A stretch of DNA of 60,862 nt from Bacillus phage vB_BspP_Dartukuta. Location: sequence record MW749009.1; one strand, written 5' to 3'. The translations under genes and the position numbers were made by a program. Shown piece by piece: positions 2,886 through 56,194 of this stretch; position 1 is the first letter of the stretch; each line of letters starts with the position of its first letter. The notes below the pieces were generated by a model, which was not told where the DNA came from, ran no database searches, and worked only from the letters and a program-made list of their open reading frames with translations.

Positions 2886-2933
2886 AATTCACCACTTACC
2901 GTATTTGTTTGAGCGTGACGCGAGCGCGTGACG

Positions 2934-3569: not shown

Positions 3570-3621
3570 AGATACCTCTTACGCATGCGCTCAGCTACTG
3601 TTTTGTGTTTCATTGCTCTAC

Positions 3622-4430: not shown

Positions 4431-5005
4431 ACATCACCGCCATGTTTTCGATAGTCGGCAATAGCTGCCCTAGCTTTATCAAAATCCTCTCCAGTTGGCG
4501 TTGGGTTGACCATGAATAACTCAAGAACCTCCAGCAGCTTCGCAACTTCAGTCGCTTGCTGCGGGTGAGCATAGAGCGGGGTGGTTGACCCAGGGCTTAG
4601 CTGCTCGCAAAACTCAGCTACATCTTTGTTAGTAATCACATCTCCGCAAAATGTTTTTTCTCTAACGAGCCACGCCGTAGGCTCTACCAGTTTCGTAACG
4701 TCATCAGCTGGATTCTCAGGCTCAACTGGCAGCACTTTGTAATTACATTTATATCCACAATCTGGATCCCAGTAGTCGCCTGCCTCGTCGCGGCCGTCCT
4801 CATCAATTTCACCATCAGGAAAAACCTGATCGCACATCTTGGCTCTATGTGTTATTTTTCCAACACAAACACTGGTCACTTCCTCGCTCCAACCGTCCAC
4901 CAAATATTCTTGTGTCCACTCGCTGGCTTCATCTAGCGCCTCATCTAGAGTTTCAAAACAATCAAAACCACTCTCATTGCAATACACGAAAAATCGATCT
5001 TTCAT
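4427..5005 (-). CDS. Hypothetical acidic protein (192 aa)
   Basis: ORF track; acidic, Cys-containing; no recognisable family. Confidence 0.45.
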   Translation of the reverse strand: MKDRFFVYCNESGFDCFETLDEALDEASEWTQEYLVDGWSEEVTSVCVGKITHRAKMCDQVFPDGEIDEDGRDEAGDYWDPDCGYKCNYKVLPVEPENPADDVTKLVEPTAWLVREKTFCGDVITNKDVAEFCEQLSPGSTTPLYAHPQQATEVAKLLEVLELFMVNPTPTGEDFDKARAAIADYRKHGGDV

Positions 5006-5014
5006 ACTTAATCC

Positions 5015-5449
5015 CTACAATTGAAACTCCAGTTGCACTTCTTCTGAATGCAGCTGGCGCTTTACTTGGGTTTGCTTGCGTACCGCTTCATAGCCACGCT
5101 TGACGCCTGGCAGCGCAAAGCTGCTTTGCTCGACTTCAGAAATAAACTTCTCAGCGGCATCTTTTGCTGAGAAGTAGCGCATGTACAGCTCGTGGCGCTG
5201 CAGCTTCTCAGGTCTGAAAAGATGCTCAGAACAACGACACCCAAGCGGGCAAGTGCTTTTACAGCCGAATGGCTCGTTGCCGTTTGGTATCAGCTTGTTG
5301 AACTCTGCTCGTGCGAATTGGAAAGCATTTTTATCAATACGGTGGCCGCTGCTTGCCAGCCGCTCTAGCGTTTCAACTTGCTGGCCAGCTAGCGCCAAGC
5401 GCTCTTTTAGCTGGCGCTGTTTCTCTAAAAGAACTTCATCATCCATCAT
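5015..5449 (-). CDS. Hypothetical protein with Cys cluster (144 aa)
   Basis: ORF track; motif FGCKSTCPLGCRCSEH suggests a possible metal-binding site. Confidence 0.45.
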   Translation of the reverse strand: MMDDEVLLEKQRQLKERLALAGQQVETLERLASSGHRIDKNAFQFARAEFNKLIPNGNEPFGCKSTCPLGCRCSEHLFRPEKLQRHELYMRYFSAKDAAEKFISEVEQSSFALPGVKRGYEAVRKQTQVKRQLHSEEVQLEFQL

Positions 5450-5913: not shown

Positions 5914-7518
5914 CTAAGCGGCTTCGAGCAGGCTCATGGCGTATGAATATCCAGACCAATTATCAACACCTGCATTTTCAAGCGCTGTTAGCTTTGCTAA
6001 AGCGTCAAGCAGCTCCCTGTACTCTGCTTTTGTGATTGTGATGAGCTCAGGCGCGGCATTGGCTGTCACTGCTAGATCTTGATCTGACGCTTGCTCTGCA
6101 AAAGTTTCATGTTTCACTTCAGCGGCGGGCTTGGCGCGAGCATTTTCCTCTGCCAGTTTTTGTTTTTTGCTCTCAGCATCACGCTCAGCCTTTGCTTGTT
6201 CTTCAGCGCGAATACGCAAGCGCTCAGCTTCGATGCGCTTTTCCTCTGTCGCCTTGTGGTCAGAAATGCGCAATCTAACCAATGAACAAAAATCATCATT
6301 CGACTTACTGATAAAGCCTTGTATGTCTGAAAACAGAAACTCAAAACCGGAGGCAAGCTCTTTATAACTGTCAATGTTTGTGCTGATGATCTCTGCCTGC
6401 GCATTGATCTCAATTTTGGCGCGAGCAAGCTCAGAGTCTGCTGCATCCTGCAGGCTTGCGATAGTGCGCTTACCTTTCATTGCACCTGCAAAATCAGCAC
6501 GGAAGCTTGGTATTTGAAACGATCCAAGACGCTTATTGATTGCCGCAACATGATCATTTAACGCAGCGGCAGCATTGTTAAGAATCTCAGCGCGGCGATT
6601 GTCCTTCATAGCCTTGACCAGCTTGTCGAGGTTTAGGCGAGTGGTGCGCGTTTCCTCGCCAATATCGTCTAAGGTGCGAAACAACTCTTCAATGCTGGCT
6701 GTCTGGCTTAGCGCGTGCTGCTTGGCTGCTTGAATGCGACCCTCAACGTCCTTACACCATTTGACTGTTTGCTCTGCATCAGCAAAGTCTTGATCTGTTA
6801 CCAGGTCACGATTGATTGAGCCGATAACGCTTAGCGCATGCGACTTAAACAACGCAAGGTTGCTTGCAGTCACCATGCCGGTTACTTCGATACGCAAGGC
6901 TGGCAGCGAATCAGGCGCTTTACCTGCTGCCTCAACCTGCTTAGGCGCAGGCGCAACAAACTCAGCAAGGTCTTGCTCGAATTGCTTCCAGCCGGCAACA
7001 AGCTGCTCAGCACGACCAGGTACAGCCCGGTATTCCATGTGGACCATATTTTCTTCTGTGCCATCGGAGCACACGAAAATCACATACTCAGCACCACTAA
7101 CAAGCAGCTGCTGCTCAAGCTGCCAATAATAAGCTGGGGAAAGATCGCCAGCTTTAACCTGCTCAACAAGCTCAGCATTCCACAGCTTGTGCTCAAAGAT
7201 AACGTCACCGAGCATGCTTAGGCCATCCATGCTTGCTAGGTACTGGTCCTTAGTACAAACGACCGGATAAAGTTCTTCGCCAATCATTTGTTCAACAATT
7301 GGCCGGGCCAGCGCTTCAGTAACATGGCCGCGATCAAAGTTCTTTTGAGTGAATGCGTCGATTTCAGGCGTAAGGCCAGTTTTTTTCTGTGCCAGCAACT
7401 CGGTGCGCGACTGGTATTTAGAGCAGCCCATCATAGCCGGCGCTTCAGAAGCGGTAAAATACTCGGCTCGCAAAGCAAGCCATTCTGGTGTTCCCTGCTC
7501 TACAGTATGAACTTTCAT
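5914..7518 (-). CDS. YqaJ-type phage exonuclease (recombination exonuclease) with long C-terminal coiled-coil region
   Basis: N-terminus QGTPEWLALRAEYFTASEAPAMMGCSKYQSRTELLAQKKTG ... FEHKLWN is typical of YqaJ/lambda-Exo-like PD-(D/E)XK nucleases; it sits directly upstream of RecT. Confidence 0.8.
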   Translation of the reverse strand: MKVHTVEQGTPEWLALRAEYFTASEAPAMMGCSKYQSRTELLAQKKTGLTPEIDAFTQKNFDRGHVTEALARPIVEQMIGEELYPVVCTKDQYLASMDGLSMLGDVIFEHKLWNAELVEQVKAGDLSPAYYWQLEQQLLVSGAEYVIFVCSDGTEENMVHMEYRAVPGRAEQLVAGWKQFEQDLAEFVAPAPKQVEAAGKAPDSLPALRIEVTGMVTASNLALFKSHALSVIGSINRDLVTDQDFADAEQTVKWCKDVEGRIQAAKQHALSQTASIEELFRTLDDIGEETRTTRLNLDKLVKAMKDNRRAEILNNAAAALNDHVAAINKRLGSFQIPSFRADFAGAMKGKRTIASLQDAADSELARAKIEINAQAEIISTNIDSYKELASGFEFLFSDIQGFISKSNDDFCSLVRLRISDHKATEEKRIEAERLRIRAEEQAKAERDAESKKQKLAEENARAKPAAEVKHETFAEQASDQDLAVTANAAPELITITKAEYRELLDALAKLTALENAGVDNWSGYSYAMSLLEAA

Positions 7519-7522
7519 TGCT

Positions 7523-8290
7523 TTACTCCTGACTTGATTCGATGGCTGGATCTGCTTTGATGTTTAGGATTATTTCGCGCTGCTCATCGCTAAGCGTGTG
7601 CTTTGACTCGATCATTGAAACGATGCGCTCAGGTGTAGTTTTGCCGATACCTACGGCCGCTTCCCACTTGGGCAGGTTGGTTGCTAGGCTTTCATCGCAA
7701 TACGCTGGCAGCGACTCAATGCGCTCTGCTGCTGGGGTCGCCGCCCGATTAATGTCACCCATGTCCTTAGTAGGCGTATCCATTAGCTCTTCAGCTACCG
7801 GCATGCCGCGCAGCACATCGGGGAACACATCACGCAAAGCAAAGGCACGCGCTCGCATTTGACGCATACGCTTCGGGTATTGCGACCAGGGTCCCTGCTT
7901 TCCAGACAAGCCAGCAGCTTTAGCATCGGTCATGCTGAAAGTTCGCACTTGTTCTTCTTCGCCGCGACGCTTAACCCGGCAGGTTGCCGTTTCGCCGTCG
8001 TCTGTTTCGTAAATGTGCTCGCACAGTGGCGAGCCTCGAACAATACCGATAACAGCGTCACCCCATAGGGATGGCCGGCCATTGATTACTGCGATGTTTT
8101 GCATGGCCTGCATCGGCTGCAAGCCAAGCTCTAAGCCCCACTGGATAGCAACTAGGATATTGCCAGAGTTGCCCTTGAAGTCTTTGGGCACAATGTCAGA
8201 CTTCGATAAAATCTCAGCAAACCGGATTGCTTCATCAAGTGATTGCGGCGTCAGACTGAAGCCTGGCTTTTGTTCTGTTAAAGCATTCAT
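7523..8290 (-). CDS. recT: RecT-family single-strand annealing recombinase
   Basis: ATG at 8290 (MNALTEQ...) with GGAG 7 nt upstream. Pattern DIVPKDFKGN..ILVAIQWGLELGL.P....NIAVINGRPSLWGDA matches RecT as I remember it; paired with the exonuclease. Confidence 0.8.
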   Translation of the reverse strand: MNALTEQKPGFSLTPQSLDEAIRFAEILSKSDIVPKDFKGNSGNILVAIQWGLELGLQPMQAMQNIAVINGRPSLWGDAVIGIVRGSPLCEHIYETDDGETATCRVKRRGEEEQVRTFSMTDAKAAGLSGKQGPWSQYPKRMRQMRARAFALRDVFPDVLRGMPVAEELMDTPTKDMGDINRAATPAAERIESLPAYCDESLATNLPKWEAAVGIGKTTPERIVSMIESKHTLSDEQREIILNIKADPAIESSQE

Positions 8291-8367
8291 GTTTTTCTCC
8301 ACGCAAATGCAAGCCATCGCAACTTGCGATTGCTAAAAAAAATGATTTAAAAGTTGGTTGTTGCAGA

Positions 8368-24320: not shown

Positions 24321-24372
24321 GCGGTCAGGGCTGGCTGGTATTACCGGCTAGCCCGTTACTGGAGTGAGTGAC

Positions 24373-25191
24373 ATGAAAGTTCTTATTATCGGTATTGCTC
24401 AAGTAGCGCACGCTATTAATGCCGCATATTGCAAAGCGCTTGGTGATGATACTCAAGTCGATTGGGCTAACGCACCTGAATGGCAGCAGAAGTCTGCTAT
24501 CGCTGGCGTAGAAATGCACTTGGCAAACCCCGATGCTACGCCTGAGCAGTCACATGAGTCGTGGCTAAAACAGAAGCTCGATGAAGGCTGGGTATACGGC
24601 GAAACGAAAGATGTAGAAGCCAAGCAGCACCCGTGCTGTGTTCCTTACGCTGATTTGCCAGCAGAACAAAAGGCCAAAGACTACATTTTTCGCGCAGCTG
24701 TTCATGCGGCAAAGACACTAGCTGACTCTATGCCTAAGCCGACACAAGTTAAGCCGGTTGAAGTCGCCGCGCCTACAGGTTTCTCTGGCAAGGTTATCAA
24801 CGTGCAATATGTTGGTGTGCGCGAAGAATGGCTAGACCATACCTACAGCACAGGTCTGCACTTCACAAAAGGACAGGTTCGAGCGATCCCTGTAGTGATA
24901 GCCAATAAGCTATTGCGCCATGCTGATATCTTCCAGCAAGCCGAAGATTTGCACTCACAGGATGATGAAGAAACTCTAATCCTGATTGACCAAGCACAGG
25001 ATAAAGCAGCCGAAGAGGAGGCTAGCAAGCAACGTCACTACGATATTCTGCACGAAGTATCAAAGATGAACCGTGACGGTTTGGTTCAGTTCGCAGCTGA
25101 ACGCTACCAAGTGAAGCTGAATGGCCGCGGCAAAGCTGATGATTTGCGTGAAGAAGTTAATCAGCTAGTTAATCAGTACGGTGTCGTATGA
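24373..25191 (+). CDS. RyR (ryanodine-receptor-like) domain protein
   Basis: Motif HESWLKQKLDEGWVYGETKDVEAKQHPCCVPYADLPAEQKAKDY matches the bacterial/phage RyR domain signature (W..GW.YG...D...K.HP.LVPY..LP.E.K..D). Confidence 0.55.
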   Translation: MKVLIIGIAQVAHAINAAYCKALGDDTQVDWANAPEWQQKSAIAGVEMHLANPDATPEQSHESWLKQKLDEGWVYGETKDVEAKQHPCCVPYADLPAEQKAKDYIFRAAVHAAKTLADSMPKPTQVKPVEVAAPTGFSGKVINVQYVGVREEWLDHTYSTGLHFTKGQVRAIPVVIANKLLRHADIFQQAEDLHSQDDEETLILIDQAQDKAAEEEASKQRHYDILHEVSKMNRDGLVQFAAERYQVKLNGRGKADDLREEVNQLVNQYGVV

Positions 25192-25865: not shown

Positions 25866-26056
25866 ACAAGCTAGCAATTGACCTGAAGGTTGGCGAAACG
25901 CTAATAATCGGAACGTCATCTATCCGGCTTGAAAAGAAATCAGGCCAGTTGGCGCGCCTAGTAATCCAAGCAGATAACAACACGCCAATCACAACACCTA
26001 AAACAGCGCGCATGAGTGTGCTCCAAGAAACATCGGAGAGTACACATCATGGCTAA
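25862..26056 (+). CDS. Hypothetical small protein (64 aa)
   Basis: ORF track only. Confidence 0.3.
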   Translation: MNKLAIDLKVGETLIIGTSSIRLEKKSGQLARLVIQADNNTPITTPKTARMSVLQETSESTHHG

Positions 26057-26456
26057 CACGCTATTCGACTTCGCACGTCAACGCTTCCTTGAGGCCCAGC
26101 TGAACTGGATGACCGACACCATCAAGGTGATCTTGGTCGATACCGGCGCATACACACCACAGACAGCAGTTCACCAATACCTAGCTGATATTCCTATCTC
26201 TGCGCGTATTGCTGGGCCAGTGACGCTAACCAGTAAAACCACTACAGGCGGTGCGGCAGATGCTGCGGACGTGACATTTACCAGTGTCACAGGCGCATCC
26301 ATTGAGTCGATCATCATCTATTCAGATAGCGGTACTGAATCGACAAGCCCGTTGATTGCCTACATTGATACAGCAACCGGCTTGCCCATCACGCCCAACG
26401 GCGGTGACATTATCGTTACATGGGATAACGGCACCAACAAAATCTTTAAAGTTTAA
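26049..26456 (+). CDS. Hypothetical virion protein (135 aa)
   Basis: ORF track 26016..26456; likely ATG at 26049 (MANTLFDF). Confidence 0.45.
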   Translation: MANTLFDFARQRFLEAQLNWMTDTIKVILVDTGAYTPQTAVHQYLADIPISARIAGPVTLTSKTTTGGAADAADVTFTSVTGASIESIIIYSDSGTESTSPLIAYIDTATGLPITPNGGDIIVTWDNGTNKIFKV

Positions 26457-26479
26457 TGCGCAGCGCGCAGGAGTGCGGC

Positions 26480-26782
26480 ATGACAAAAGCCACAAAGCCA
26501 CCAACACAAGTCGCAGGCGTAGAAGGTATTGCGCCTAAGCCTATCGTGCTCACGCCTGAGTCAAGCAAGATTGATTGGGCGAGAATTATCCAATTGCCGC
26601 CATTCCAAATGTTTGCCGTCGAGCGCGCGCGCAAGTCTGCCGCCGACGTGATGGCATGGATGCCGGCATGGGCGCGCGAGCACGAGAGCGAACAGGCGCT
26701 GTTCGACGACTACTGCCAGTGGCACAAAGAAAAGGGCTACTGGCCAGCAGAGACGCCAATGGGCGAATTGATCGAGCCGTAA
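26480..26782 (+). CDS. Hypothetical protein (100 aa)
   Basis: ORF track 26456..26782; likely ATG at 26480 (MTKATKPP). Confidence 0.4.
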   Translation: MTKATKPPTQVAGVEGIAPKPIVLTPESSKIDWARIIQLPPFQMFAVERARKSAADVMAWMPAWAREHESEQALFDDYCQWHKEKGYWPAETPMGELIEP

Positions 26783-26796
26783 CGAGAGGTTATTTC

Positions 26797-28683
26797 ATGC
26801 CACACATGCCAGGAAATGGCGCCATTTTCGGCGTTATCAGCGAGGACGGTCTAGCAAAGACTGGCTTCCCCGTGAGCCTTGTTGATAGAACCACGGGTAA
26901 ACTGGTGAGCCGACAACTGTCTGACGGAAACGGCGCGTTCGCCTTTAACGGCCTCAACCAGAACACCAATGACTATCAAGTGATTGGGCAGGACGAAGAC
27001 GGCGAAACGTACAAGAATGCGGTGATTCGTGACCGCATCCAGCCAGTGCCCGGATACCAAGGCGCAAGCTACTGGGGCAACTGGCGCTACGCTGCAATCC
27101 AGTACGGCGTCCACTCTTTCTATGACGGGCAGTTGGCCCACAACTATCTGGAAGACACCCAGTCTGGGACTGTGCCGTCGTACTCGGCGGGACAAGCACC
27201 GCGATTCCGATATTCTCCTAATAACTCGACAGGAACAGTAACGAAGCCAGTCATGGATGTTTCCATCACACAGGGAGACCCGAGCATTCCGGCCACTACG
27301 TTTGATTTGAGCACAATGACGGCCTACGGGATGACAAACCCCGCAGGAACCGTAGAGATCGACGCATTTGGAAGTCCTGCAAAGACCGCGCTAGAGCTGG
27401 TTGCTGACTTTTCTACACTTTCTTCGGAGTCTGGGTGGGCATCTTTCACTCATTCGTTATCGCACGAAAACGAAGACCCGAACACTGGAACCAATGTACC
27501 CCATGTAATTGGCCTTTACTACAACATCTCCGGGAAATACCTTCGCATTCAGGTTAACAACACCGGCGATTACCATCTACGGGCTGAACATAGAGTAAAC
27601 GTCGGCGACTTCTCAATGGAGGAGTATCAAGGCGTACATCATGTAGTGGCCTCCGCTGTGTTCGGCGAGGCGCTTAATTTGTACATCGACGGCGTTCTCG
27701 CTCATACGTTTTCTATGGTCGGAATGTCAGCCGCTTTGCGTTATAGAAACAACTCCGCTTATGGTCGAGTAGGCGGAACCCACATCCATGGGGAATACAA
27801 CCAAACCTCTAGCTCTAATCAAGGCATACATATCGCGCGTGGAATTTCTGGAAAGGTGGCTCTTCTCGCTTGGTATTCCAATGCGCTGGATGACGTTCAA
27901 GTTTTGGACTTACACCAAAGCCTAATGGTCGGGGCTGAGCCGAAGCTAACAGGCTTCGCTAAGGAAGTTTTCGCGGACCACCCCACCTTTTACGTCCGGC
28001 TGAACGAGCCAACTGGAACGACTTTCGTTCGGGACATGCTGCGCGGCCATACATCCGACGTTTTTGCCGGAAGGGTCTACGGCGAGACGCTCATGTTGCA
28101 GCCCTCCATCGTCGTTGGCGGCAACACCTTTGGGTTTAACGGTTCGTCATCCGTGCGCTTTAACTACAGCTCCCCGTCACTCTATAACTCCCAAGGGTTC
28201 ACGGTGCTGTGCGTCTTAAAGCCGGAGTTGGAAACTCCAGCTGCGACCGAGACACTGCTTAGATGCACAAACACTAGCGAGGCATACAATCACGGTGTAA
28301 TACTACAAAGGCTGGTCAATGGATGTTTAGGACTGATCTACCGCGCAGGCGGTTTGAACGAACAGATTGATTTCACTGTCCCTATTGGCACGGAGTCCAT
28401 GTGCTTAGCTGCCATTGCGATTGACAAAGTTGCCTTAACTGCCTCGCTTTTCATAAATGGCGAGTTAGCTGAGCAGCAGGTTATTGTTGGATCGTACATC
28501 GACCGACCGCCAAGCAGGGTATCTAACGCCATGTACTATCAGGCGATGATTGGAGGGATCACATCGGATACTGGGGGCATAACATCCCCTTACAGAGGAC
28601 TTCTCGGCGAACTTGCTGTCCTGCAAAACCCTATCACCGCTCAGCGGGCCAAGCAGATCTTCGACGCCACGCAGGTGGTGTAA
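26797..28683 (+). CDS. Tail-associated protein with two LamG/ConA-like lectin-type regions (628 aa), inferred
   Basis: ORF track 26575..28683; ATG at 26797 with GAGAGG upstream. Beta-rich N-terminus; two segments reminiscent of concanavalin-like lectin domains. Fold unverified. Confidence 0.45.
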   Translation: MPHMPGNGAIFGVISEDGLAKTGFPVSLVDRTTGKLVSRQLSDGNGAFAFNGLNQNTNDYQVIGQDEDGETYKNAVIRDRIQPVPGYQGASYWGNWRYAAIQYGVHSFYDGQLAHNYLEDTQSGTVPSYSAGQAPRFRYSPNNSTGTVTKPVMDVSITQGDPSIPATTFDLSTMTAYGMTNPAGTVEIDAFGSPAKTALELVADFSTLSSESGWASFTHSLSHENEDPNTGTNVPHVIGLYYNISGKYLRIQVNNTGDYHLRAEHRVNVGDFSMEEYQGVHHVVASAVFGEALNLYIDGVLAHTFSMVGMSAALRYRNNSAYGRVGGTHIHGEYNQTSSSNQGIHIARGISGKVALLAWYSNALDDVQVLDLHQSLMVGAEPKLTGFAKEVFADHPTFYVRLNEPTGTTFVRDMLRGHTSDVFAGRVYGETLMLQPSIVVGGNTFGFNGSSSVRFNYSSPSLYNSQGFTVLCVLKPELETPAATETLLRCTNTSEAYNHGVILQRLVNGCLGLIYRAGGLNEQIDFTVPIGTESMCLAAIAIDKVALTASLFINGELAEQQVIVGSYIDRPPSRVSNAMYYQAMIGGITSDTGGITSPYRGLLGELAVLQNPITAQRAKQIFDATQVV

Positions 28684-31600
28684 ATGACATTCCTCATCAC
28701 CGGCGTCACGCTGGGCGATGTCAGCGCGACAGGTGATGATTCTTACGTCAGCAATGCCGCTGACTTAGTTCTTGTGGCGTCATGGGATAGTGCGGCTATA
28801 CCTGCTCCCGTGGTGTCACCAGACGTCTCAGGCGCTTTGGTTTCGCTGGATCTCTCTGAATCCTACAAGTCGCCCGCTGGCTCTGCAGTTTCACTGACGC
28901 TCTCAGGAGCGCCATTTGTCTACGCTGGCGCTGTGGATTCCGCGCGATTCGGCATTCCTACCGCAGGCAATGCTGCGCAGGCCGCATATCCCGTAGGATG
29001 GGAGTCTTTTGCGTATGGGTTTACCACTCGCGCGACATTTGATCTGAGTTCGCGCGAGCTGCCGCTTAGCATCGAGGGCGCCTACACCTCGCCGACTGCG
29101 CTCAACGTGGGGCTGTATCTGGACGGCAAGCCGTTAGTGTCGGCTGCCTCCATTGGTGATCAGACGGAGTTCGGCTCTGCTTCGGTGGAATCGCCATTGT
29201 CGGCGCGTCCATTTGGCTTTGATGCCTCCGACCACTCTATTCCGCGCGTCCACCGAGGCGAGACGGGCGCGCGGGTAGAGCTGAGGCTGGATGCTCACTA
29301 TCAATCCCTTCATGGGTCATCGGTCAGCCTGCCGCTATCCGGTGCGCCGCTGGTGCTGGCATCTGCAGGTCTTCAGCAGTTGTTCGGCCTGCCGTCGGTG
29401 GCCAACGCATCGCAAGCATTCTACCCCTTCGGGTTCGACTCTACTGGCTTTGGCTATCGCACACGCGCGTTTCGATCTGACTTAGATAGTGGAAACCTGT
29501 CTCTCAGTTTGGAGGGCAACTACGCCCCTCCTAACGCTGCGGCCATTCAGCTGCTTTGGGCGAGCGAGTCAAAGACGCTTTCGCCCTTCGGCTTCACGGG
29601 CTTGCAGCTCGGTGAGCCTATTGTTCGGGTTGCTCAGCTCTTTCTTGAGGGGATACAGCCGCCTGCGGATGCGGTACCGGCTCCGAGCCTCAAGAACCTC
29701 AATCGCACCGTCTCACCACTGGGCACCGACTTTCTTGAGTCTGGCGCCCACCACTCGGTTGCCAATAGCGGTGTGGCGGTTCGCCCAACTGGGATTTCGC
29801 ACCCTGGACTTGGCGCTCATCGAATCTGGAACTGGCGTCAATACCGCAACATGCAGGGCTTCAACACGGCTCTGTATGGGCGCCCATACCTCCAAGGTGG
29901 TGTTAAGTACATCACGCCAAGTGGTGTCAGCACGACTGTCTATGGTCGCCCGTCTGTCGTCAATACTACAGCCGATCAGTTTGTCAGCCTTGCTGGTCGG
30001 ATAGCTCCTCCATGGGCTGGTAGGCCCGCTGTATCTCCGCGCACTGTGTTCCCCTATGGCGTACTGGGCGCTACATTCGGATCAGCGTTCGTACAGTTCC
30101 CGCCAAGGCCGGTAGGTTGGTTATCAAGCGCGTTTGGCTATCCGGTTATTGAGGATAAGACCAAGTATCTAGCTGCTGGAGGGATAGGTGCTGATGACCA
30201 GTACGGCTATCCAGTAGTTTTCGATCCAACAATTAAGGTTCTTGTTTCGTCCGTTATTCAGTCGGGCGTGTTTGGTGACACGGCAGTTAAGAACAACCGC
30301 TTTGTTCTGAATGCTGAGGGCATTGATAGCGCAAGCGTTTCGCCTTGGGCAACGCTTAGGAACACCAGAAGACTTACCTATGCGAGCGGCTGGCGCTCAC
30401 TTGATTTTGGCGAGAGCAGTGTTACCAATAAAACGCCAAGCATTGCACCAGTAGGCTTTGATGCGCTAAGACTGCCGAACCCAGCAGAAATAGGTATCAG
30501 CTACGCAGTTAGGTTGATCTACACAAGCGGGATCAACAAAGGCGGCATAGGTGTCGCGACTCTAACCAAGACGCCAGAGATTGCACCGAAAGGCATAGCT
30601 GCGCCTACTTTGGGTTTGACGACTGTATGGCACAGAGTAAGAACACTAGAAGTTCGTGGCGCAGACGCATACAAGTCCGGCAGTGCAGATGTTTGGTTTA
30701 GGTATCGCTTCGTACAGCTACAAGATCGCGGCTGGAACGGCTCAGCATACGGCGCGCCAAGGCTAGAACACGAACACAGGGCTATCAATGGTCTAGGAGC
30801 AGACAGCCTAAGATCAGGCACGCCTTATATCGGGCTGAGAAATAGAACGATTGCGCCTGAATCAGCGTGGGAAGACTTTGCTACAGGCCACATGGTTGGT
30901 GGTCTACGGTTCTTGCGCCCAGTTGGATATGAGGCTACGCGCTGGGGTACGCGGATCATTCCTGAAATAACTCAGGTCTATGTAAGAGGGTTTTCAAACA
31001 GCTACGGCATACCCACGCTGAGGAACAATACTAATCTTATCCTTCCGGCAGGTATCACGACAACGCCTGATCCAGTAGATCAATGGGGAACCGCAAAACT
31101 CCACAACAGCAGGCAGTTCGTGTCAATGTTCTATGACGTTGATAGCGAATTAAACCCTCCTAAGTGGTCGCAGTGGACGCTGATTGAGAACAGGAATAAA
31201 TACTTAGCTACTACTGGCAACGAGATGTTGCGTATCGGTAGATCAGTAGTCGCCAATGCTGCTACAGCAGTTATCCCCTCCGCAATACTTGCGCCGGAGT
31301 GGAGTAAGGCGAGTGCTTCAGGGATGGTCGCGTTCCGTATAAGACCGCTAAACCTTGACTCTATCGAGCCGCCATACTTCAGCGGGTGGCTAAATATATA
31401 CAACGATGCCCCTGTGCTTGGATCTAAAGGTTTCAATGCAGAGAGCTTCGGCGTATCAGTTGTTGAAAATACGCGCAGGACATTTAAGTTCCAAGGCTTT
31501 GATAGTGCATGGTTCGGCTACCCAATGGTTGCGTTCAGGATCCGGCACATTAAGTTTGAGGGTCGCTACACGATTGCGCCACCGCCTATCAGGATGCAAG

Positions 31601-33066
31601 AGGTCAAGCTGTACACACGCTACCTAGATCCTATTGGGTACGAGACTTACGGTTCTGGCGCTCAGTCGCTAAGTATCCACTGGACGCTAATCACACCACG
31701 ATGGACTCATCAAGACCTGTTTGGAGAACCTAGAGTTCATAACGTAACACCTGAAGTGAAAACGCGAGGCAGGGTATCCGAAGAGTTCGGTAATGCTTTC
31801 GTGCGCCTTGAATGGAGAGAACTAATCACTCATGAAGCATTCACGCAGATCATCCCTAAGCCTATCGTGGCTTTCAGGGATCGCGCTATCGAAGTGAATG
31901 GCATCCGGTCAATGGTATTCGGTGACAAGCTAAAGGTAACGAAAACAGGCGCGCCACCTTACTCAGACCAGCTAATCATTCTTGCTAATGCTGACGTTAC
32001 TAAGAACGGTTACGGGATTGAGGTGCCTAAAGATCAGGTTCCTAAACCAATCATGAATCAACAGGTTCTATACCATCGCTCTGATTCAGTGATGACAAAA
32101 TTCGGATCACTTAGAATTACTGCCAACATGATTCGTGTTGAGCCAGGATTCCAAGAGCTTAGCGTAGGTGAGCCTATGGTTAGCTTGAAGATTAGAACCG
32201 TTGAGGTTAAAGAGTTTCCAGGAGATCAGATTTTTCAGCCATCAAAGCCGCGCCTGTCACCTCATACAATCTGGGCTGTGAAAGAAGCGCCTGCGCAAGC
32301 TAAGGTAAATCACACCTCTTCTTCATTGCACTATGTTGATGAATATCCTGGCAGTGGATGGAGAAAGGGATTTGGCAGGCCATCCGTGTTTCTTTATACC
32401 GGACTTGTTAATACAAGAGGGGCAAACCATGCTGCTGTAGGTAAGCCCAGTGCTTATAACGCCTTGTCTTATATCAGGCCGAAAGGCATAAAATTAGACC
32501 GTTATGGGTGGCACACAGTACCTGGCGAGCAAATATCTGAGCAGATCAATTCATCCGATACAATGGTATTTGGTATTACAAAAGTTGGCAGGCCGCCTTA
32601 TGTTGGGCCACAAACAATAGCTGCGAAGGGTTTATCTGCTATTTTTTGGGGAGCTAGCGACATACAGCTATTACACAGGCAAATCTACCCTAGAGGGCAC
32701 TTGTCTATGGCAATGGGTACAAGACGTGGAGGAGATAGTCCGTATATGTGGCAAGGGTTGAGAATAGGCGAGCTGATGCCGACCATACCTGAAGGTTTTT
32801 CAGCTGAGCTAATCGGTGAGCCTTGGCTTTCATTTAGAGTTCGCGAAGTTAATCCCGATGGGTACGATGCGTTTATATCTGATTACGACCTAACTGCTTT
32901 CTCTAGGCGCATGAAAGTATTCCGTAAAGAAGTACCTAGCAGCGTAGATCACATAAAACCTGAAGGCTTTGATGCTTTTGCTTCGAGTGCTTCTGACGTT
33001 AAACCATTAGCGCACTTTATCCGGCCTGATGGAAACAGCGACCAATATCGTAAAGGAGCCTTCTAA
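28684..33066 (+). CDS. Large repetitive virion protein (1460 aa) with >20 F/Y-G-x-P motifs
   Basis: Recurrent FGYPVI, YGRPYL, FGEPRV, FGRPSV, YGIPTL motifs at ~30-60 aa spacing; start overlaps the upstream stop (TAAATG). Confidence 0.55.
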   Translation: MTFLITGVTLGDVSATGDDSYVSNAADLVLVASWDSAAIPAPVVSPDVSGALVSLDLSESYKSPAGSAVSLTLSGAPFVYAGAVDSARFGIPTAGNAAQAAYPVGWESFAYGFTTRATFDLSSRELPLSIEGAYTSPTALNVGLYLDGKPLVSAASIGDQTEFGSASVESPLSARPFGFDASDHSIPRVHRGETGARVELRLDAHYQSLHGSSVSLPLSGAPLVLASAGLQQLFGLPSVANASQAFYPFGFDSTGFGYRTRAFRSDLDSGNLSLSLEGNYAPPNAAAIQLLWASESKTLSPFGFTGLQLGEPIVRVAQLFLEGIQPPADAVPAPSLKNLNRTVSPLGTDFLESGAHHSVANSGVAVRPTGISHPGLGAHRIWNWRQYRNMQGFNTALYGRPYLQGGVKYITPSGVSTTVYGRPSVVNTTADQFVSLAGRIAPPWAGRPAVSPRTVFPYGVLGATFGSAFVQFPPRPVGWLSSAFGYPVIEDKTKYLAAGGIGADDQYGYPVVFDPTIKVLVSSVIQSGVFGDTAVKNNRFVLNAEGIDSASVSPWATLRNTRRLTYASGWRSLDFGESSVTNKTPSIAPVGFDALRLPNPAEIGISYAVRLIYTSGINKGGIGVATLTKTPEIAPKGIAAPTLGLTTVWHRVRTLEVRGADAYKSGSADVWFRYRFVQLQDRGWNGSAYGAPRLEHEHRAINGLGADSLRSGTPYIGLRNRTIAPESAWEDFATGHMVGGLRFLRPVGYEATRWGTRIIPEITQVYVRGFSNSYGIPTLRNNTNLILPAGITTTPDPVDQWGTAKLHNSRQFVSMFYDVDSELNPPKWSQWTLIENRNKYLATTGNEMLRIGRSVVANAATAVIPSAILAPEWSKASASGMVAFRIRPLNLDSIEPPYFSGWLNIYNDAPVLGSKGFNAESFGVSVVENTRRTFKFQGFDSAWFGYPMVAFRIRHIKFEGRYTIAPPPIRMQEVKLYTRYLDPIGYETYGSGAQSLSIHWTLITPRWTHQDLFGEPRVHNVTPEVKTRGRVSEEFGNAFVRLEWRELITHEAFTQIIPKPIVAFRDRAIEVNGIRSMVFGDKLKVTKTGAPPYSDQLIILANADVTKNGYGIEVPKDQVPKPIMNQQVLYHRSDSVMTKFGSLRITANMIRVEPGFQELSVGEPMVSLKIRTVEVKEFPGDQIFQPSKPRLSPHTIWAVKEAPAQAKVNHTSSSLHYVDEYPGSGWRKGFGRPSVFLYTGLVNTRGANHAAVGKPSAYNALSYIRPKGIKLDRYGWHTVPGEQISEQINSSDTMVFGITKVGRPPYVGPQTIAAKGLSAIFWGASDIQLLHRQIYPRGHLSMAMGTRRGGDSPYMWQGLRIGELMPTIPEGFSAELIGEPWLSFRVREVNPDGYDAFISDYDLTAFSRRMKVFRKEVPSSVDHIKPEGFDAFASSASDVKPLAHFIRPDGNSDQYRKGAF

Positions 33067-34256
33067 TGGCAGATTTACCACTGATGCCGCTTGCCGGTAT
33101 GAACAATGTAGCTGAAGAAGCAGCCTTAATGCGTGGCGGCGACTCGCCAGCAGTGTTTGCGCGAGACGTTGTGAATATCAATGTGTCGCCAGCAGGAAAG
33201 GCAATGCTAAGAGACTGCGCGCACCGCGTTAGCACGCTGAAGATCAGGGAGCTATGGCAAAGCCCGTTACATCGAGAGTCGTTCGGTGCGGTTGGTGACG
33301 AGTGGGGAAAGGTTGGCGCATTAAGCTGGTCGTTTGATCCTATGGTCAGTATCGGTAACGGTCCAGTGTCGCATGAAGTGTTGAACAACCTTGTTTGCGT
33401 GGCTGGCGACTCCGGCATATTTACCTATGACGGCAGAACTTCTCAAAAGCTAACGATTGAAAACCCACCCGCACCACTCGTGATAACTGGAAGCGGCTCA
33501 ATGGTTGCTGGTATGTACGGCGTGTCGGTGGCATGGCTTAGGGGGGCTACCGAGTCAGCACCTTCTGCAATCGCGTTTACGGACGTTCCTGATGAAGGCG
33601 GTATGCAAATTATTCTGCCGATGTGCCTTGATGACAGCGTGACAGGTGTGCGGCTGTACATGACACGCCAAAACGGTGGAGAGCTTGCAAGAGTCGGTGA
33701 TTACCAGATTGACGCAACAACCGTTGATATTCCGGCTTTGCCTAAACTTGGCGCGCCACCGCAGTTTCTTAATAAGTCGCCAATGCCTACAGGTAAGTAT
33801 CTGAAGTATTGGCGAGGCCGTCTGCTTACTTCCCGCGCCAATGTGCTTCGCTTTTCTGAGTCTATGGCCTATCACTTGCACGATGAGCGCCACGGGTTCG
33901 TACAGATGCCACAGCGCATAACCTTTGTTGAGCCTGTGGATGGCGGGATATGGATTGGCCAAGTCGATCACGTTGCCTTCCTCGAAGGCGCAACACCTGA
34001 CGAGCTTGTCATGCAAAGAAAGACCGCTTGCGCACCAGTGGCCGGTAGTTCAATTCAAGTGCTGGCCGACACGATTGGTGGCGAGCTTTCACAGGGCGGA
34101 TCTGCCACTGTGTTATGGCTCGCAGAGAATGGTTATGTAGCTGGCACAGCAAGCGGCCAAGTGGTTGAAATGCAGACAGGCGTTATGAAAGGTATCACCG
34201 CAGAAAACGGCACTTCTGTAGTGCTGGATCGCAGAGTGCTTACCGCTGTAACCTAG
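33066..34256 (+). CDS. Hypothetical virion protein (396 aa)
   Basis: ORF track; overlapping start (TAATG) with the upstream gene. Confidence 0.45.
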   Translation: MADLPLMPLAGMNNVAEEAALMRGGDSPAVFARDVVNINVSPAGKAMLRDCAHRVSTLKIRELWQSPLHRESFGAVGDEWGKVGALSWSFDPMVSIGNGPVSHEVLNNLVCVAGDSGIFTYDGRTSQKLTIENPPAPLVITGSGSMVAGMYGVSVAWLRGATESAPSAIAFTDVPDEGGMQIILPMCLDDSVTGVRLYMTRQNGGELARVGDYQIDATTVDIPALPKLGAPPQFLNKSPMPTGKYLKYWRGRLLTSRANVLRFSESMAYHLHDERHGFVQMPQRITFVEPVDGGIWIGQVDHVAFLEGATPDELVMQRKTACAPVAGSSIQVLADTIGGELSQGGSATVLWLAENGYVAGTASGQVVEMQTGVMKGITAENGTSVVLDRRVLTAVT

Positions 34257-34325
34257 AACAAGTTGGCGTAAAGCCTTTTTTTAACGCTGCGCAAGAGTGC
34301 GGCATAGGAACTAATGGAGTCTCCT

Positions 34326-42616: not shown

Positions 42617-45600
42617 ATGAGCTTTGAAGTTGATTTAGACAGCGCTGTTCTTGAGGGTGATTATTATGGAGATGATACTAGGGTCAAGCCTGAGAGCAGC
42701 AGTTCAGGCTTTAGCCCTGAAGCAGGTCCCGCAAAGCAGCCAGCTCCCTTTAGCGTTGACCTAGAAAGCGCTGAGCTAGACGAAAAAGCCAACCAGGGCT
42801 TTATTGGAACATTAGCTGACGGTGCAAAATCGGCAGGTAGAGCCATTAGCTCTACTTACAATACTTATACTGGCGATGGTCAAGCAGTTGTTGATAACGC
42901 CAAGGCTCAAGAACTGGCCAATGAAGATAAAAGCCAAGACATTAAAAACTTCCAGTCTGACTGGGCGGCAAATACGGGCGCAGGTACTGATGACGAAGTA
43001 GGCTTATGGGGTGCTATCAAAGGCACTGGAAAGGCAATTATTGATAACCCTCGTGGTGCCGCCCTTTCAGTAGTTGAGCAATTCCCTAATTCAGTTCCAG
43101 CACTGGCCGCAGGCTGGGCAGGCGCTAAAGGCGGCGCAATGGCAGGGGGCGCAGTCGGCTCGGCTTTTGGTGGTGTCGGCGCTGGGCCTGGCGCTTTAAT
43201 TGGTGGCGCCGCGGGGTTTGTTGGCGGCATGTTCCTCGGTAATACGTTGACCGAAACGGGCCATAAGGCGCAAGAGTACGCTGCCGATGGTGAGTTCACG
43301 CCAGATGAGCAGTCAGCAGCTATTACCGAGGGCGCGAAAAAAGCCGGTGTTATTACAGCCGTAGATGCGCTTACCTTTGCTGTCGGTGGCAAGGTTTCTG
43401 GATACTATCGGAAAACAGCAGAGTCAACAGTTGAGGCAGCTACTCGCAAAACACTGCTTGACGCTGGTGTTGATATTAGCGATACAGCAGCGCTTACTGC
43501 GGCAAGAGGTAGCCCACAAATTGCAAGCCAAGTTGTTGAAGCGCAGAAAAATGCGGCAAAGATTGCAGACAATCTACGCAAGCGCGCAGGCGAGGCAGGC
43601 GCGCTACTTACAATGGAAACAGTCGGCGAAGGCTTAGGTGAATACTTAGGCGAACTGGCAGCGACTGGACAAGCAAGCGTAGCAGAGGCCGTGCTAGAGA
43701 GCTTCTTGTCGCTAGGTCAGTCTGGCGTTCAGTCGATGTTTAACTTTGCCAAGGCGCGAGAGCGTTCGCTCACTGACCAAGAATGGATTGATGCGTCAAA
43801 CGGTATTGCGCCAGAAGGTATGGCACCAGAGCAAATGCCGGTTGCTGATGGTATATGGGATAAGCCAACTCCAGAAGCCAAGATCGACATGGGGCAGATG
43901 CAGGGTGGCGGCGTAACACCGACACCTGTATTTGACCCGCAAGACATTGATCGCAACCTTGCACCGACACCATCGCAGCAAATGGGAATTAACCCTGATG
44001 CTGGCCCACTTTCTGCTGCTGCAGCGCAGTCAGTTGATAGTGGCTTGTTTACAGGCGGGTTTACCCCACAAGCCGGAATTAACCAATCGGCACTTGAGCG
44101 CGAGGGCGTAACGCCGCCGCCAGTATTAGATACTGACCAGATTGACCGCAACTTAGGAAGTATTGATCCATTAACAGGTGAGTACATGCCTGCACCTGAG
44201 CAGTTAGGTCAGTCGAGTCAAGCGGGAGGCGCCGGTAATTATGAGTATGACCAATGGGGCAACCTAAGCAGCGTTGATGGCCGCACAGTAGATGGTTACG
44301 GTCAAAACCAACCACGCCTTGGTTTTAATAGTAAAGCCGAGCGCAGCACCGCGCCGTTATATGAAGTTGGGCCTGATGGTGTGGCGCGTCCATCTTCAGG
44401 AGAGGCGGCGCGGAGTAGAAAAGAACGTATTGACCTATCATCGCTGAAAGGTAGACAGCAAACCCAAGCGCAAAAACAGCCTGCTGCTATGCCAGAGCAG
44501 CGTAGTCCTGAACAGCAAGCGCAATCTATCTGGGATTCAATGAATACCTTTGAGCGTAACGCTGCAGCAGCAAATGTTCTTGGTATGCGCGGCGTACCGG
44601 CTAAGAATGCAGCCACAAAAGCATGGGATAAGCTAAGCTCTGAACAGCAGGCCAAGCTCGTAACTGGACTTGAGAGCCAGCAAGGGAAACGCTGGATAGA
44701 CCCTAATCAGAAAGTGACTGACCAAACTGGCCCTGTGCTACAAAACCGCGACCGCACAAGCCAAGACTCAATCAATCAGATGCGAAGCATCTCAAACAAT
44801 CCAGACTACAGCAGGTTAAAAACATCAGGCTTCTTGTCTGACGGTGCGCCTGTTGTTGTTGATGAGAATATTCAAATACCAGCGTCACAGATGGGCGTTA
44901 CTGATACTGCTTCTGCAGGAAACGAGCGCTTTAACGTGCAGTACGCAGTAGTTGAAGCCGACCAGTTAATGACCAGTAACAGCATTGACGGTACCACTAA
45001 CGCTGAATACCAGACAGGGGCTGCAGGTAAGGCTAGAGCAATTGCAGGTAATGGACGAATCACTGGCTTGCAATCAGCATGGGCTAAAGGCAACGCCAGC
45101 CAATACAAAGCCGATATGGCAGCCGATAGAATGCACGGCATTGACCCGGCCGTTATTGAAGGCATGCGCAATCCTGTTTTAGTCCGCTTATTGCCGCAGG
45201 ATCAGGTCACTGACAATATTGGCGACCTAAGCAACAGAGACGAGAAAGGCAGACTTTCGCCGGTCGAGCAAGCCAAAACAGATATGGGCCGCATTGACCT
45301 TGATAGCCTAAAGTTTACTGCTGAAGGTGCTATCGGTGGCGAAGCGATCCACCAGTTCCGCATGGCTCAACCTGCAGCTGAGCGCGTGAGTGAGGCAGAG
45401 GCACGGAAGCGACTGACTTCTGCTGTCTTCCAAAAGGCATACGGAAACGATCAGCTTACAGAAATCCAGTCTGGTGAAAGTGACGATGCCAAATCAATCT
45501 TATCAGCACTGGCACAAGCAGCCCCAAGCATGTCACGTCTTGAAGGAGCTGGTGAGTTTGATATTCGCCCACTAATCACGCAGGCAGGCATTGCGGCTGT

Positions 45601-48600
45601 AAACGCAGCGCGTAGAGGCACTAAACTTGCTGATTATGTTCAGCAGTCAGAAATGGGTATTGATCCAATGGTATACCCAATTCTGGAAATGATGCTGAAC
45701 GAGAATGGCAATATCCGTAGTAGCAAATACATCGGCGAACAGCTAACCAATATGGCAAAGTTGGCTTATGATGAAGCCAACTCACCTAGCTCAGATATGT
45801 TTGGCGAAAAACCCAAGCGTACAGCTGAGCAGGTTATTCAAGACGCGCTTACTGGAGTACAAGGTTATGGCCAAATCAATGACGGAAGAGGGCAAGAAAG
45901 TCTGGGGCAGCGAGGGCGGTCAGAACCTGATGCGCAAATGGTTGAAGGGCCAGAAGGCGGACGAGAGCGACCAGCAGACACTAGACAAACTGCACCAACT
46001 CAACCAGAAGCAGAGCAAGAACAACCCGCAGCAGTAGAAAGCAATGCGCCTGAAACATGGCGCAGTAACTACATTCAAGCCGCCAAGATTGCACGCGAAA
46101 AAGGCATTAATCCTAAGCAGCATAAAAAACTCGCTGACTTGGTTGAAGCTATTGATGCGTCAAACACTAAACCTGAAGCTCAAACACAGCTAACAGCACA
46201 ACAGAAGCAGGCTTCAGGCAGTGTAGATGGTGCAAAAGTCCATCTTAACAACAGCATTGACCTAACCAGCGCATTAGCTGCAATCGCACGCGGCGCACAA
46301 TTAAGCACCGAGCCAAACGGTGACGTTATTCTTAGTGGCACCAAGATAATTACGCTTCCAAAGCCGCCAACTTCTATTGATGAAGTTATTGCCCCGTTAG
46401 CCACAGCCTTACTAGAACAAATGCGAGCAGATGGCGTTTCTATGCCTGGCAACCCAGCGGACATGACGCGGGATCAGTTTGCTATTGCCTATCACTTTGC
46501 AAACATAATTCCAGAGTTTGAAATCAGCGGAGCAGATATTGGTGGCGTAGTCCAAGGATCAAGCCGTGGCTTAACAGTAGACTCAGACAAGCTATACGAC
46601 AAGATCATCGAGCAAGCCAAAGAGCAGGCTAAACCAGCCTTGGAGCTTAACCAGCAAACCGAAGAATCCTTAGCTAAAGATGCCAAACGATTAGAGCAGC
46701 TGCAGAAAGAAGAAGCTGCGCAGAAAGTCGCGCAGAAAGCTGCAGAAAGGAAACAGCGTGAGCGTGACGCAGACAAGGCCAGAGCGGACGAAGTGGTTGA
46801 TGACTTCCAGTTGGGGCAGTCTGCAGAAGAAGTAATGTCTGGCATGGGTGATATTTTTGCGACTGAGAGCAAGCCAGCAGATAAAGGCATTGCGTCTCAA
46901 GCCGATGACAGCCATGTCACAGTTGTTGATAACCAATACAACCCAAACCCTACAGAAGCGCAGAAGCAGGCTGGCAACTACAAGAAGGCTCACGTTAAAT
47001 TCCAAGGCCTTGATATCACAGTAGAGAATCCAGTCGGATCAGTGCGCAGTGGCGTAGATCCTGACGGCAATACTTGGTCAAATACTATAAAGCATGATTA
47101 CGGATACATTAAGCGCACTAAGGGCGCTGACGGCGACCATGTTGATGTGTTTATAGGTAAAGATACCGAAAGCGATAAGGTATTTGTAATTGATCAGCCG
47201 CACAAAAACGGTAAGTTCGACGAACACAAAATCATGCTCGGCTTTAAAGACCAGACGCAGGCCGTAGAAGCGTACAAAGGCAACTATCAGAAAGACTGGA
47301 AAGTTGGCTCTGTCACTGAAATGACTGTGGGCGAATTTAAGCAGTGGCTTAGCAATGGTGATACCACCAAACCGGTTGAGCCAGTCGCGAAGCCAGCAGC
47401 GCAAACAAAGCCAAGCCAAGCCATTGAGGACTTTGGTGAGAGGCTGGAAGGCGCACGCAAGGATTACGCCAGCAAACTATCTGACGCTAAAGAGGTAGAC
47501 ATTGCGACTGAGCCACTATCAAAGTCTTGGCCAGAGCCGAATTATCAGAAGTTGATTGACGGAGGAATGCCGCTAGAAACAGCAAGTATTGTTCGTGCTA
47601 TTCGTGATGAGATTCCAGTGAAGCCGCGCGCATCATGGCGACTGAAAGGATGGGTGCGACAAGTAAGCGAAATGCGTGATTTAGCCTTGAATTTGATGGG
47701 GGAAACAGCTACAGCTAAAGTGATTGTAGAGCAGATAAAATCTAATAAATCTTTATCAGACATAGTGAATCGTGCAGACCTGTACTCGGCAGTTGGGCAC
47801 GATAAAAGCCTAAAAGATATTAGTTTAAAACAAAGCTCTTACTCGTTGATTGATGGTGTTAAATACTCGCCACCGAAAGAGCTCTGGACGGTTGAAAGGC
47901 CGATTAAAAGCAGCGTAATAAGCAACATGCCCAGACGTATTGCGACAGCTGAAACAAGAGAGCAAGCGATTGCCAAATTCAAAAATGCGTATGCAACATT
48001 GGACGAAAGCAAACGTGTCAAGAACAAAGCAGTTGAGTTTGGGGTTTATACAGACAGAACCACAAAAGATGTTTTCATTGGCCGGAAGGTTGGCAAAAGT
48101 ATTGCTCGCGTAAAAACTGGATTCGAAACTGCTAAAGATGCAATTGCACACCTAAAGGAAAACTATGCTGCTCTTGAAGAGCGGTTTAACAAGATGAAGG
48201 ATACGCCCGATCATCGTAAGGCTGAAAACTCACCTAGAGTTGGCGTTGATCACCGAAATGGCGCGGATGTAACACCGGAGCAGTTCTCTGATACGTTCGG
48301 GTTCAGAGGGGTGCAGTTCGGTAACTATGTAGAGCAAGGACGTAGGCAGCAGGATCTAAATGAAGCCTATGATGCGCTTATGGACATGGCTGGCGTGTTA
48401 GGTATTCCAGCAAAATCTCTATCTTTAAATGGTGAGCTTGGACTAGCGTTTGGTGCTCGTGGTAAGGGTGGAAAACAAGCAGCTAAAGCGCATTATGAGC
48501 CAGATCAAATTGTTATTAACTTAACTAAGAAAAATGGCGCAGGCAGCCTTGCTCACGAATGGTGGCATGCGCTTGATAACTATTTTGGCCGCGAGCGTGG

Positions 48601-56174: not shown

Positions 56175-56194
56175 AGTGAGCACCTTTCAGATTT

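Follow-up and report, generated by a model that had tools for sequence, protein, structure and literature searches.

DARTUKUTA_49 is a gene of Bacillus phage vB_BspP_Dartukuta, a temperate podovirus of the F116-like (Hollowayvirus-related) group, and was analyzed in the context of a stretch of 60,862 nucleotides (MW749009.1, hereafter the window) that makes up the complete phage genome. The product of this gene, listed by NCBI as "hypothetical protein DARTUKUTA_49" (QXN70902.1, 100% identity), consists of a conserved N-terminal β-sandwich (aa ~8-97) followed by two lectin-like domains of the LamG/ConA type, termed D1 (aa ~148-378) and D2 (aa ~387-628), and it lies in the structural module directly upstream of a gene for a 1460-residue protein. 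Based on these domains, the conserved gene order, a gradient of conservation along the protein and the exchange of a defined DNA block, DARTUKUTA_49 is probably a tail-mounted adhesin, an accessory receptor-binding protein that would bind a host glycan without cleaving it. Its presence in the virion, its docking partner and its binding of glycan are each what we infer from such comparisons, with glycan or receptor binding being read from the fold. A protein previously known only as hypothetical thus becomes a candidate tail adhesin with defined domains, although the practical value of this is modest.

Two lectin-like domains behind a conserved N-terminal domain

The gene extends from an ATG at position 26797 to a stop codon at 28681-28683, which is exactly the interval given in an original prediction made from the sequence alone. 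All homologues share the start peptide MPH(K/M/R)PGNGAIFG, and for this reason a longer version beginning at a TTG at 26575, which would also overlap the upstream gene for a 108-residue protein, was rejected as unsupported. Minus-strand open reading frames within the gene (26851-27195, 26954-27199 and 28338-28532) are likewise without support and are taken as chance occurrences. A word-indexed search of 5.8 billion proteins returned just 9 relatives of DARTUKUTA_49 (38-100% identity), whereas an exhaustive profile search of 1.84 billion representative proteins gave 632 matches at E ≤ 1e-3, with 112 of these at E ≤ 1e-30. Among 156 sequences that were retrieved, 57 are full-length homologues of 550-700 residues that have the same architecture, and the family therefore contains at least 57 full-length representatives when clustered at 50% identity.

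D2 matches the Pfam family Laminin_G_3 (PF13385, "LamG-like jellyroll fold domain-containing proteins") over aa 450-616 with an E value of 3.4e-7 and a score of 31.0 bits, which is above the gathering cut-off of 27.6, and the match spans positions 4-148 of the 151 positions in the model. This same family is matched by 56 of the 57 full-length homologues (best E 2.5e-23). When the 57-sequence profile was compared with the PDB it retrieved 4qvs, deposited as "S-layer domain-containing protein" (E 7.8e-9), the family 40 carbohydrate-binding module (CBM40) of the R. gnavus IT-sialidase (6er2-4; E 3.5e-7), the lectin domain of leech sialidase L (1sli; E 5.9e-7) and a SAP-like pentraxin (E 1e-6). 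The CBM40 matches cover ~155 residues of D2, and as this likeness is at the profile level only we make no claim of sialic-acid specificity. Profiles were required for these comparisons, as a single-sequence phmmer search of the PDB gave spurious weak matches only, for example to an engineered gp120 domain.

D1 of DARTUKUTA_49 on its own falls below the Laminin_G_3 threshold (16.5 bits, E 0.0099). Its homology to this family is instead supported at the profile level, since Laminin_G_3 is matched by 28 of 43 homologous D1 segments (best E 2.8e-7) and since the D1 and D2 profiles align with each other at 98.8% probability (E 1.4e-16, 197 columns). A corresponding alignment built from just 9 sequences gave 95.7% and an E value of 1e-8. 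The same family is thus present twice in tandem, and to judge from these alignments D1 and D2, which are about 15% identical, are an ancient internal duplication.

Structure prediction also indicates a lectin-like fold. The AlphaFold model of the full-length protein is mediocre, with a predicted local distance difference test score (pLDDT) of 66, and a Foldseek search with this model recovered trans-sialidase lectin domains and botulinum toxin Hc domains. D1 modeled by itself from a 43-sequence alignment gave a pLDDT of 85.6 and a predicted template modeling score (pTM) of 0.87, with 13 β-strands and a C-terminal helix forming a curved two-sheet β-sandwich that superposes on structures of the LamG, pentraxin or toxin Hc type. 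Its structural matches, with the figures as given, are the tetanus toxin Hc (14.1), botulinum toxin Hc N-terminal domains and NTNH (~13), pentraxin PTX3 (13.1), the LamG-like module of PAPP-A (13.1), AbnA domain 4 (12.8), calnexin (12.2), the phage CBA120 tailspike TSP2 (11.5), the cyanophage Pan3 tailspike gp15 (11.4), and CBM40, neurexin LNS and laminin LG domains (~9.5-10.6). All of these are jelly-roll β-sandwich proteins, and most are assigned to the ConA-like lectin/glucanase superfamily. The two lectin-like regions proposed in the original prediction are thus borne out, D2 by a match above the Laminin_G_3 threshold and D1 by profile, and the structure prediction that it had suggested as a check yields a jelly roll with ConA-like matches. 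Its placement of these regions in the C-terminal two-thirds is right as to location, but they extend slightly further and cover about three quarters of the protein (aa ~148-628). What that account missed is the putative N-terminal docking domain and the linkage to the 1460-residue protein.

Mean pairwise identity across the family is 52% in the N-terminal domain, 16% in the linker that follows it, 20% in D1, 40% in the hinge between D1 and D2, and 24% in D2. Within the hinge, residues P382, G386 and P396 are 92-98% conserved among the 57 sequences. The N-terminal domain contains six short β-strands in the full-length model (pLDDT 55-65) and is probably a transthyretin-like β-sandwich, as suggested by weak matches to CarboxypepD_reg (PF13620) in 9 of 57 members at E ≤ 0.01 (best E 1.5e-4) and to SdrD_B in 5 of 57. 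The CarboxypepD_reg cut-off of 32.3 bits was reached by none of the sequences inspected. Among PHROG families the domain matches phrog_27013 and the C-terminus of phrog_24534, a "tail fiber protein".

Structural proteins of phages very commonly contain LamG/ConA-like domains in tandem. For example, a Foldseek search of BFVD with the full-length model gave 539 matches at E ≤ 1e-3, many of which are named LamG or ConA-like, and phage proteins with several LamG domains each number in the hundreds in this database. Multi-LamG proteins of Synechococcus phages S-SKS1 and S-CAM4, of Stenotrophomonas phage Mendera and of Pseudomonas phage PaBG (a "putative adhesin") match the full-length model with E values of 1e-20 to 1e-12. 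Unlike these proteins, DARTUKUTA_49 combines its LamG domains with an N-terminal β-sandwich and has a fixed place upstream of a protein of 1170-1460 residues, both of which are specific to its lineage. The clostridial neurotoxin Hc N-terminal domain, the pentraxins (PTX3, CRP, SAP) and the PAPP-A module share only 7-13% identity with it, and their biology, which concerns toxins and innate immunity, is different. The DARTUKUTA_49 family extends the known repertoire of LamG-carrying phage proteins but leaves the understanding of phage adsorption unchanged.

Gene order, slot proteins and exchange of a 3.1-kb block

The structural module starts with genes for the large terminase, portal protein, a 332-residue protein, the major capsid protein, a 175-residue protein, a RyR-domain protein and an SU10-type adaptor (Pfam SU10_adaptor). 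These are followed by genes for proteins of 64, 146 and 108 residues, by DARTUKUTA_49, and then by genes for proteins of 1460, 396 (phrog "head closure Hc3"), 182, 868, 385, 631, 662 and 4203 residues. The stop codon of DARTUKUTA_49 directly abuts the ATG of the 1460-residue gene (gtg TAA ATG). The order of a protein in the DARTUKUTA_49 position (the slot protein), a protein of 1170-1460 residues and proteins of ~400, ~190 and ~870 residues is kept in 10 of 10 metagenomic loci (L002, L003, L005-L008, L009, L010, L012 and L014), where the contig reaches, so that synteny of the tail module extends over Dartukuta and 10 further loci. L010 and L012 belong to more distant phages in which the upstream order differs and in which the slot protein has ~800 residues with the β-sandwich located internally.

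Among cultured relatives, the slot is occupied in F116 and H66 by one 285-residue protein (F116p50 and H66_0052, respectively) and in 8P by proteins of 403 and 276 residues, the latter being 8P_015. The "tail assembly protein" 8P_014 was also compared with DARTUKUTA_49 and is unrelated. F116p50, H66_0052 and 8P_015 resemble DARTUKUTA_49 in their position directly upstream of the large protein and in a common β-sandwich of ~65 residues, which is all that they share with it (hhalign 78%, E 1.9e-5 and 64%, E 6.7e-5; hmmsearch E 1e-4 to 4e-6; 30-36% identity, or 30-35% by blastp). They differ from it in being without LamG domains, in the additional 403-residue gene of the 8P slot, and in a reversed arrangement in which the β-sandwich is at the extreme C-terminus and the cargo is N-terminal. 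H66_0052 and F116p50 share 99% identity, and the GenBank record of the former carries the remark "verified by mass spectrometry as part of the virion"; this is the best available evidence that slot proteins would be virion components. In 8P_015 the β-sandwich is joined to a F5/8 type C (discoidin) domain (E 4.3e-7, above threshold), by its family assignment a different class of carbohydrate-binding module, and in the N-terminal 210 residues of F116p50 no LamG likeness and no Pfam match were detectable. The tail association proposed in the original prediction is thus supported indirectly, by synteny, by the β-sandwich common to H66_0052 and by the pattern of conservation and exchange described below.

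The large protein encoded downstream is probably the main tail appendage or fiber of this lineage. It shares 49% identity with its counterpart in Pseudomonas phage 8P and about 39% with those in F116, H66, LKA5 and phiC725A, with an N-terminal ~585 residues that vary among phages and a C-terminal ~880 residues that are conserved with F116 and 8P. Searches with the single sequence and with an 8-sequence profile found no PDB relative, and there was no Pfam or NCBIfam match.

Divergence within the DARTUKUTA_49 family is distributed unevenly along the protein. The two closest homologues are 86% identical to it overall, with 94-99% identity in the N-terminal domain, 88-90% in D2 and 77-81% in D1, and in the closest of these the N-terminal domain is 99% identical as against 77% for D1. 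On contig L014 the homologue is 86% identical, whereas flanking proteins are only 23-46% identical with the exception of the 146-residue protein at 71%. The underlying DNA is a sharply bounded block at 26786-29886 (3,101 bp) with 90.1% identity to L014 positions 2181-5275, and this block extends from the ribosome-binding site through DARTUKUTA_49 and ~400 codons into the 1460-residue gene. It represents a recent horizontal exchange of DARTUKUTA_49 together with these downstream codons. Additionally, residues 1-280 of the large protein are present at 40-90% identity in 5 of 5 loci that have a full-length DARTUKUTA_49 homologue (L002, L003, L005, L009 and L014), but are absent or marginal in 4 of 4 loci that do not (8P, F116, L010 and L012). 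Given the shared block and this co-occurrence, DARTUKUTA_49 and the N-terminal region of the large protein travel together, which we read as co-adaptation, through either a docking site or joint distal assembly, and as a host-range cassette. Cassettes that pair a conserved anchor with a variable tip are a textbook trait of receptor-binding proteins, and the conserved anchor, fast-evolving distal domains and cassette-like horizontal exchange found for DARTUKUTA_49 are what would be typical of such a protein. The interval 26786-29886 is thus a likely host-range determinant that would aid host prediction or engineering of F116-like phages.

Glycan binding weighed against other roles

In the mechanism that we propose, the β-sandwich and the motif that follows it (aa ~8-97) would dock DARTUKUTA_49 on the tail, the likeliest site being the N-terminal region of the 1460-residue protein, and the flexible linker and conserved hinge would present the tandem LamG/ConA-type jelly rolls outward. 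These domains would then reversibly bind a host surface polysaccharide or other surface glycoconjugate without cleavage, thereby raising adsorption and helping to set host range, with DARTUKUTA_49 and the first ~400 codons of the next gene forming an exchangeable host-range cassette. Carbohydrate-binding modules are known to decorate tail proteins of lactococcal siphophages, and the "tail wing" of mycobacteriophage Bxb1 is built of a base, an arm and a brush. DARTUKUTA_49 is likewise conceived as an auxiliary tail-mounted glycan-binding module, but the analogy to the wing is functional only, as Bxb1 is a siphovirus and Dartukuta a podovirus, and no homology was found between DARTUKUTA_49 and any solved wing component. 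In Bxb1, gp30, gp31 and gp33 form an appendage that is dispensable (PMC12646305).

A number of observations weigh against the glycan-binding adhesin. The full-length model contains no trimerizing shaft, coiled coil or β-helix, but rather globular β-sandwich domains and disordered linkers in which the sole helices are short ones capping each LamG domain, and in view of this lack of a fibrous or trimerizing region we do not call DARTUKUTA_49 a classical tail fiber. The fold assigned to the N-terminal domain is below the Pfam threshold and its pLDDT is low. The link to the H66 virion protein, from which the presence of DARTUKUTA_49 in virions is deduced, consists of the ~65-residue domain (the hhalign match of 78%) and gene position, and the docking partner is deduced just from adjacency, co-occurrence and co-transfer. 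A ligand-binding site was not discernible; the residues conserved in the family are mainly Gly, Pro and aromatic core positions. Furthermore, the host is uncertain, with the Bacillus label set against a spanin of the Rz/Rz1 type, and the receptor class therefore cannot be named.

A further such point is that LamG folds also mediate protein-protein contacts, and because of this the two domains might bind a protein, for example pilin. DARTUKUTA_49 could accordingly be a virion protein whose LamG domains contact protein instead of glycan, either as a brace or adaptor for the 1460-residue protein or as a binder of a protein receptor such as type IV pili, and we regard this as unlikely. In its favor, the LamG/LNS domains of neurexins and laminins, like the Hc N-terminal domain of botulinum toxin, serve largely in protein interaction or as structural modules, DARTUKUTA_49 is tightly co-inherited with the N-terminus of the large protein, and type IV pili are the adsorption target of F116-like phages (PMC5217972). 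However, genuine carbohydrate binders, namely CBM40 and the lectin domain of sialidase L, are among the closest profile matches, and the fast divergence of D1 is more in keeping with a surface that faces the host than with an internal brace. The discoidin carbohydrate-binding module in the 8P slot also suggests that the slot cargo is glycan-binding. It is considerably less probable still that the jelly rolls are catalytic, forming a virion-borne polysaccharide depolymerase (a glycoside hydrolase or lyase of the ConA-like glucanase superfamily) that degrades capsule or exopolysaccharide. F116 reportedly digests alginate, an activity that is not known to have been assigned to a gene. In DARTUKUTA_49 a regular-expression search with patterns for GH16 (ExDxxE) and PL7 (R.E.R, Q(I/V)H and YFKAG.Y.Q) found none of these motifs, and neither it nor its family members match any Pfam hydrolase or lyase family. 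The best structural neighbors are binding modules, and the prevalence of Gly, Pro and aromatic residues among conserved positions also argues against catalysis.

We give the least credence to a role outside of the virion, in which DARTUKUTA_49 would either assist the large downstream protein, as its chaperone or assembly factor, or act as an accessory protein that is secreted or linked to lysogeny and is encoded in the late operon by chance. This idea draws on the indirect nature of the case for virion presence and on the dedicated chaperones that accompany some fiber genes. Such chaperones tend to be small, with genes that follow that of the client, whereas DARTUKUTA_49 has 628 residues in three domains and is upstream of its would-be client. 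Its β-sandwich also occurs in an H66 protein that mass spectrometry has detected in virions, and exposed proteins of host recognition typically show such a conservation gradient and such cassette exchange. Nothing resembling a secretion signal is seen by eye at the N-terminus (MPHMPGNGAIFG...), for which no predictor was used.

A tail-mounted glycan-binding adhesin remains the reading that we prefer, and it permits a further suggestion that we offer only tentatively. The ~65-residue β-sandwich may be a portable "plug", situated N-terminally, internally or C-terminally, that mounts swappable cargo on a co-evolving N-terminus of the large protein. The cargo could be two LamG domains in Dartukuta, a discoidin domain in 8P and another domain in F116 and H66. 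Given how common LamG domains are in phages, this position-permuted plug with its swappable cargo is the mildly interesting part, and if it is real then this lineage would reprogram its host range through the exchange of a defined ~3-kb cassette (26786-29886).

Neighboring genes, relatives and the host

The positions of the features discussed here are collected in Table 1.

Table 1. Locations of DARTUKUTA_49, its parts and other genes; positions refer to the window unless another locus is named.
Feature	Position	Strand	Remarks
DARTUKUTA_49, whole gene	26797..28683	+	628-aa open reading frame and translation; Bacillus phage vB_BspP_Dartukuta
Ribosome-binding site GAGAGG	26783..26788	+	read from sequence; ATG 8 nt downstream
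N-terminal conserved domain, aa ~8-97	26818..27087	+	small β-sandwich and conserved motif RDRIQPVPGYQGASYWGNWR; proposed virion-docking module
Poorly conserved linker, aa 98-147	27088..27237	+	16% mean pairwise identity; pLDDT mostly <50
D1, first LamG/ConA-like jelly-roll domain, aa ~148-378	27238..27930	+	fastest-diverging part
Conserved Pro/Gly-rich hinge, aa 379-400 (EPKLTGFAKEVFADHPTFYVRL)	27931..27996	+	40% mean identity; second half runs into D2
D2, second LamG/ConA-like jelly-roll domain, aa ~387-628	27955..28680	+	Pfam Laminin_G_3 and PDB profile matches
First ~400 codons of 1460-aa gene	28684..29886	+	co-inherited with DARTUKUTA_49; proposed partner or mounting site
1460-aa protein gene	28684-33066	+	large; repeated "PxG…G..V" motifs
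Holin	57982-58293		
Endolysin	58283-58828		
Rz-like inner-membrane spanin	58922-59431		N-terminal transmembrane segment
Embedded lipoprotein open reading frame	59130-59369		+1 frame within the Rz-like gene; …LLALLTSLQVGLFGCASSPQ…, lipobox LFGC
Temperate and transposase genes	3-1205, 5914-8317 (-), 11639-12277 (-), 55302-56183 (-), 59445-60542 (-)		
Slot protein 8P_015	L001 12050-12880		cultured relative
Slot protein F116p50	L004 7844-8701		cultured relative

Relatives of DARTUKUTA_49 in cultured phages were sought by tblastn of this protein and of family member P0041 against 50,697 deposited phage genomes, a collection in which Dartukuta is evidently not included, and there were zero matches. 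The family thus appears to be known essentially from metagenomes and to be absent from the cultured phages in this collection. A profile search of 100,044 species-representative genomes confirmed no prophage relatives, NCBIfam gave zero matches for DARTUKUTA_49 and 8 neighboring proteins, and a literature search on Dartukuta found no papers.

Several of the neighboring genes are noteworthy in their own right. The 146-residue protein (26016-26456) shares 86-92% identity with F116p48, with 8P_012 and with the closer metagenomic homologues in L002, L003 and L005, while its structural neighbors in those phages are only ~35-75% identical, and 40-65% is the range for the other structural proteins of the phages compared. 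It also matches PDB entry 9d93, "Tail wing arm, gp31" of mycobacteriophage Bxb1, with an E value of 5.9e-14. The DNA block at 26005-26767, which contains the 146- and 108-residue genes, is the only megablast-level match of region 26000-34300 to any deposited phage. The 396-residue protein (33066-34256) matches phrog_8040, "head closure Hc3" (E 5.6e-154), and PDB chain 26fb_K, "Structural protein" (E 5.3e-8), and its H66 counterpart has been verified in virions by mass spectrometry. In the head-tail module, a 275-residue protein (24364-25191) contains a RyR (ryanodine-receptor) domain (PF02026, E 4.9e-12) and has conserved counterparts in H66 and in metagenomic relatives. A giant open reading frame of 4203 codons (42617-55228) at the far end of the structural module has the position of the very large virion protein of F116-like phages (F116p59/60, phiC725A_54). 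The latter is described as internal to the virion and as similar to the C-terminal portion of N4 gp50 (PMC5217972).

The lysis genes of Dartukuta bear on the identity of its host. The genome encodes a Rz-like spanin with an embedded lipoprotein frame (Table 1), and spanins of two components are characteristic of phages that infect Gram-negative (diderm) bacteria. As GC content is ~50% and the relatives are exclusively phages of Pseudomonas, Shewanella and Pseudoalteromonas, the "Bacillus phage" label seems doubtful, with the Rz/Rz1 spanin, the GC content and these relatives all arguing for a Gram-negative host. The temperate lifestyle is reflected in genes for an integrase, a RecE/RecT pair, a CI/LexA-like repressor and an Ant anti-repressor. 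The right end of the window additionally carries an IS-type transposase open reading frame that may represent an insertion sequence within the phage genome.

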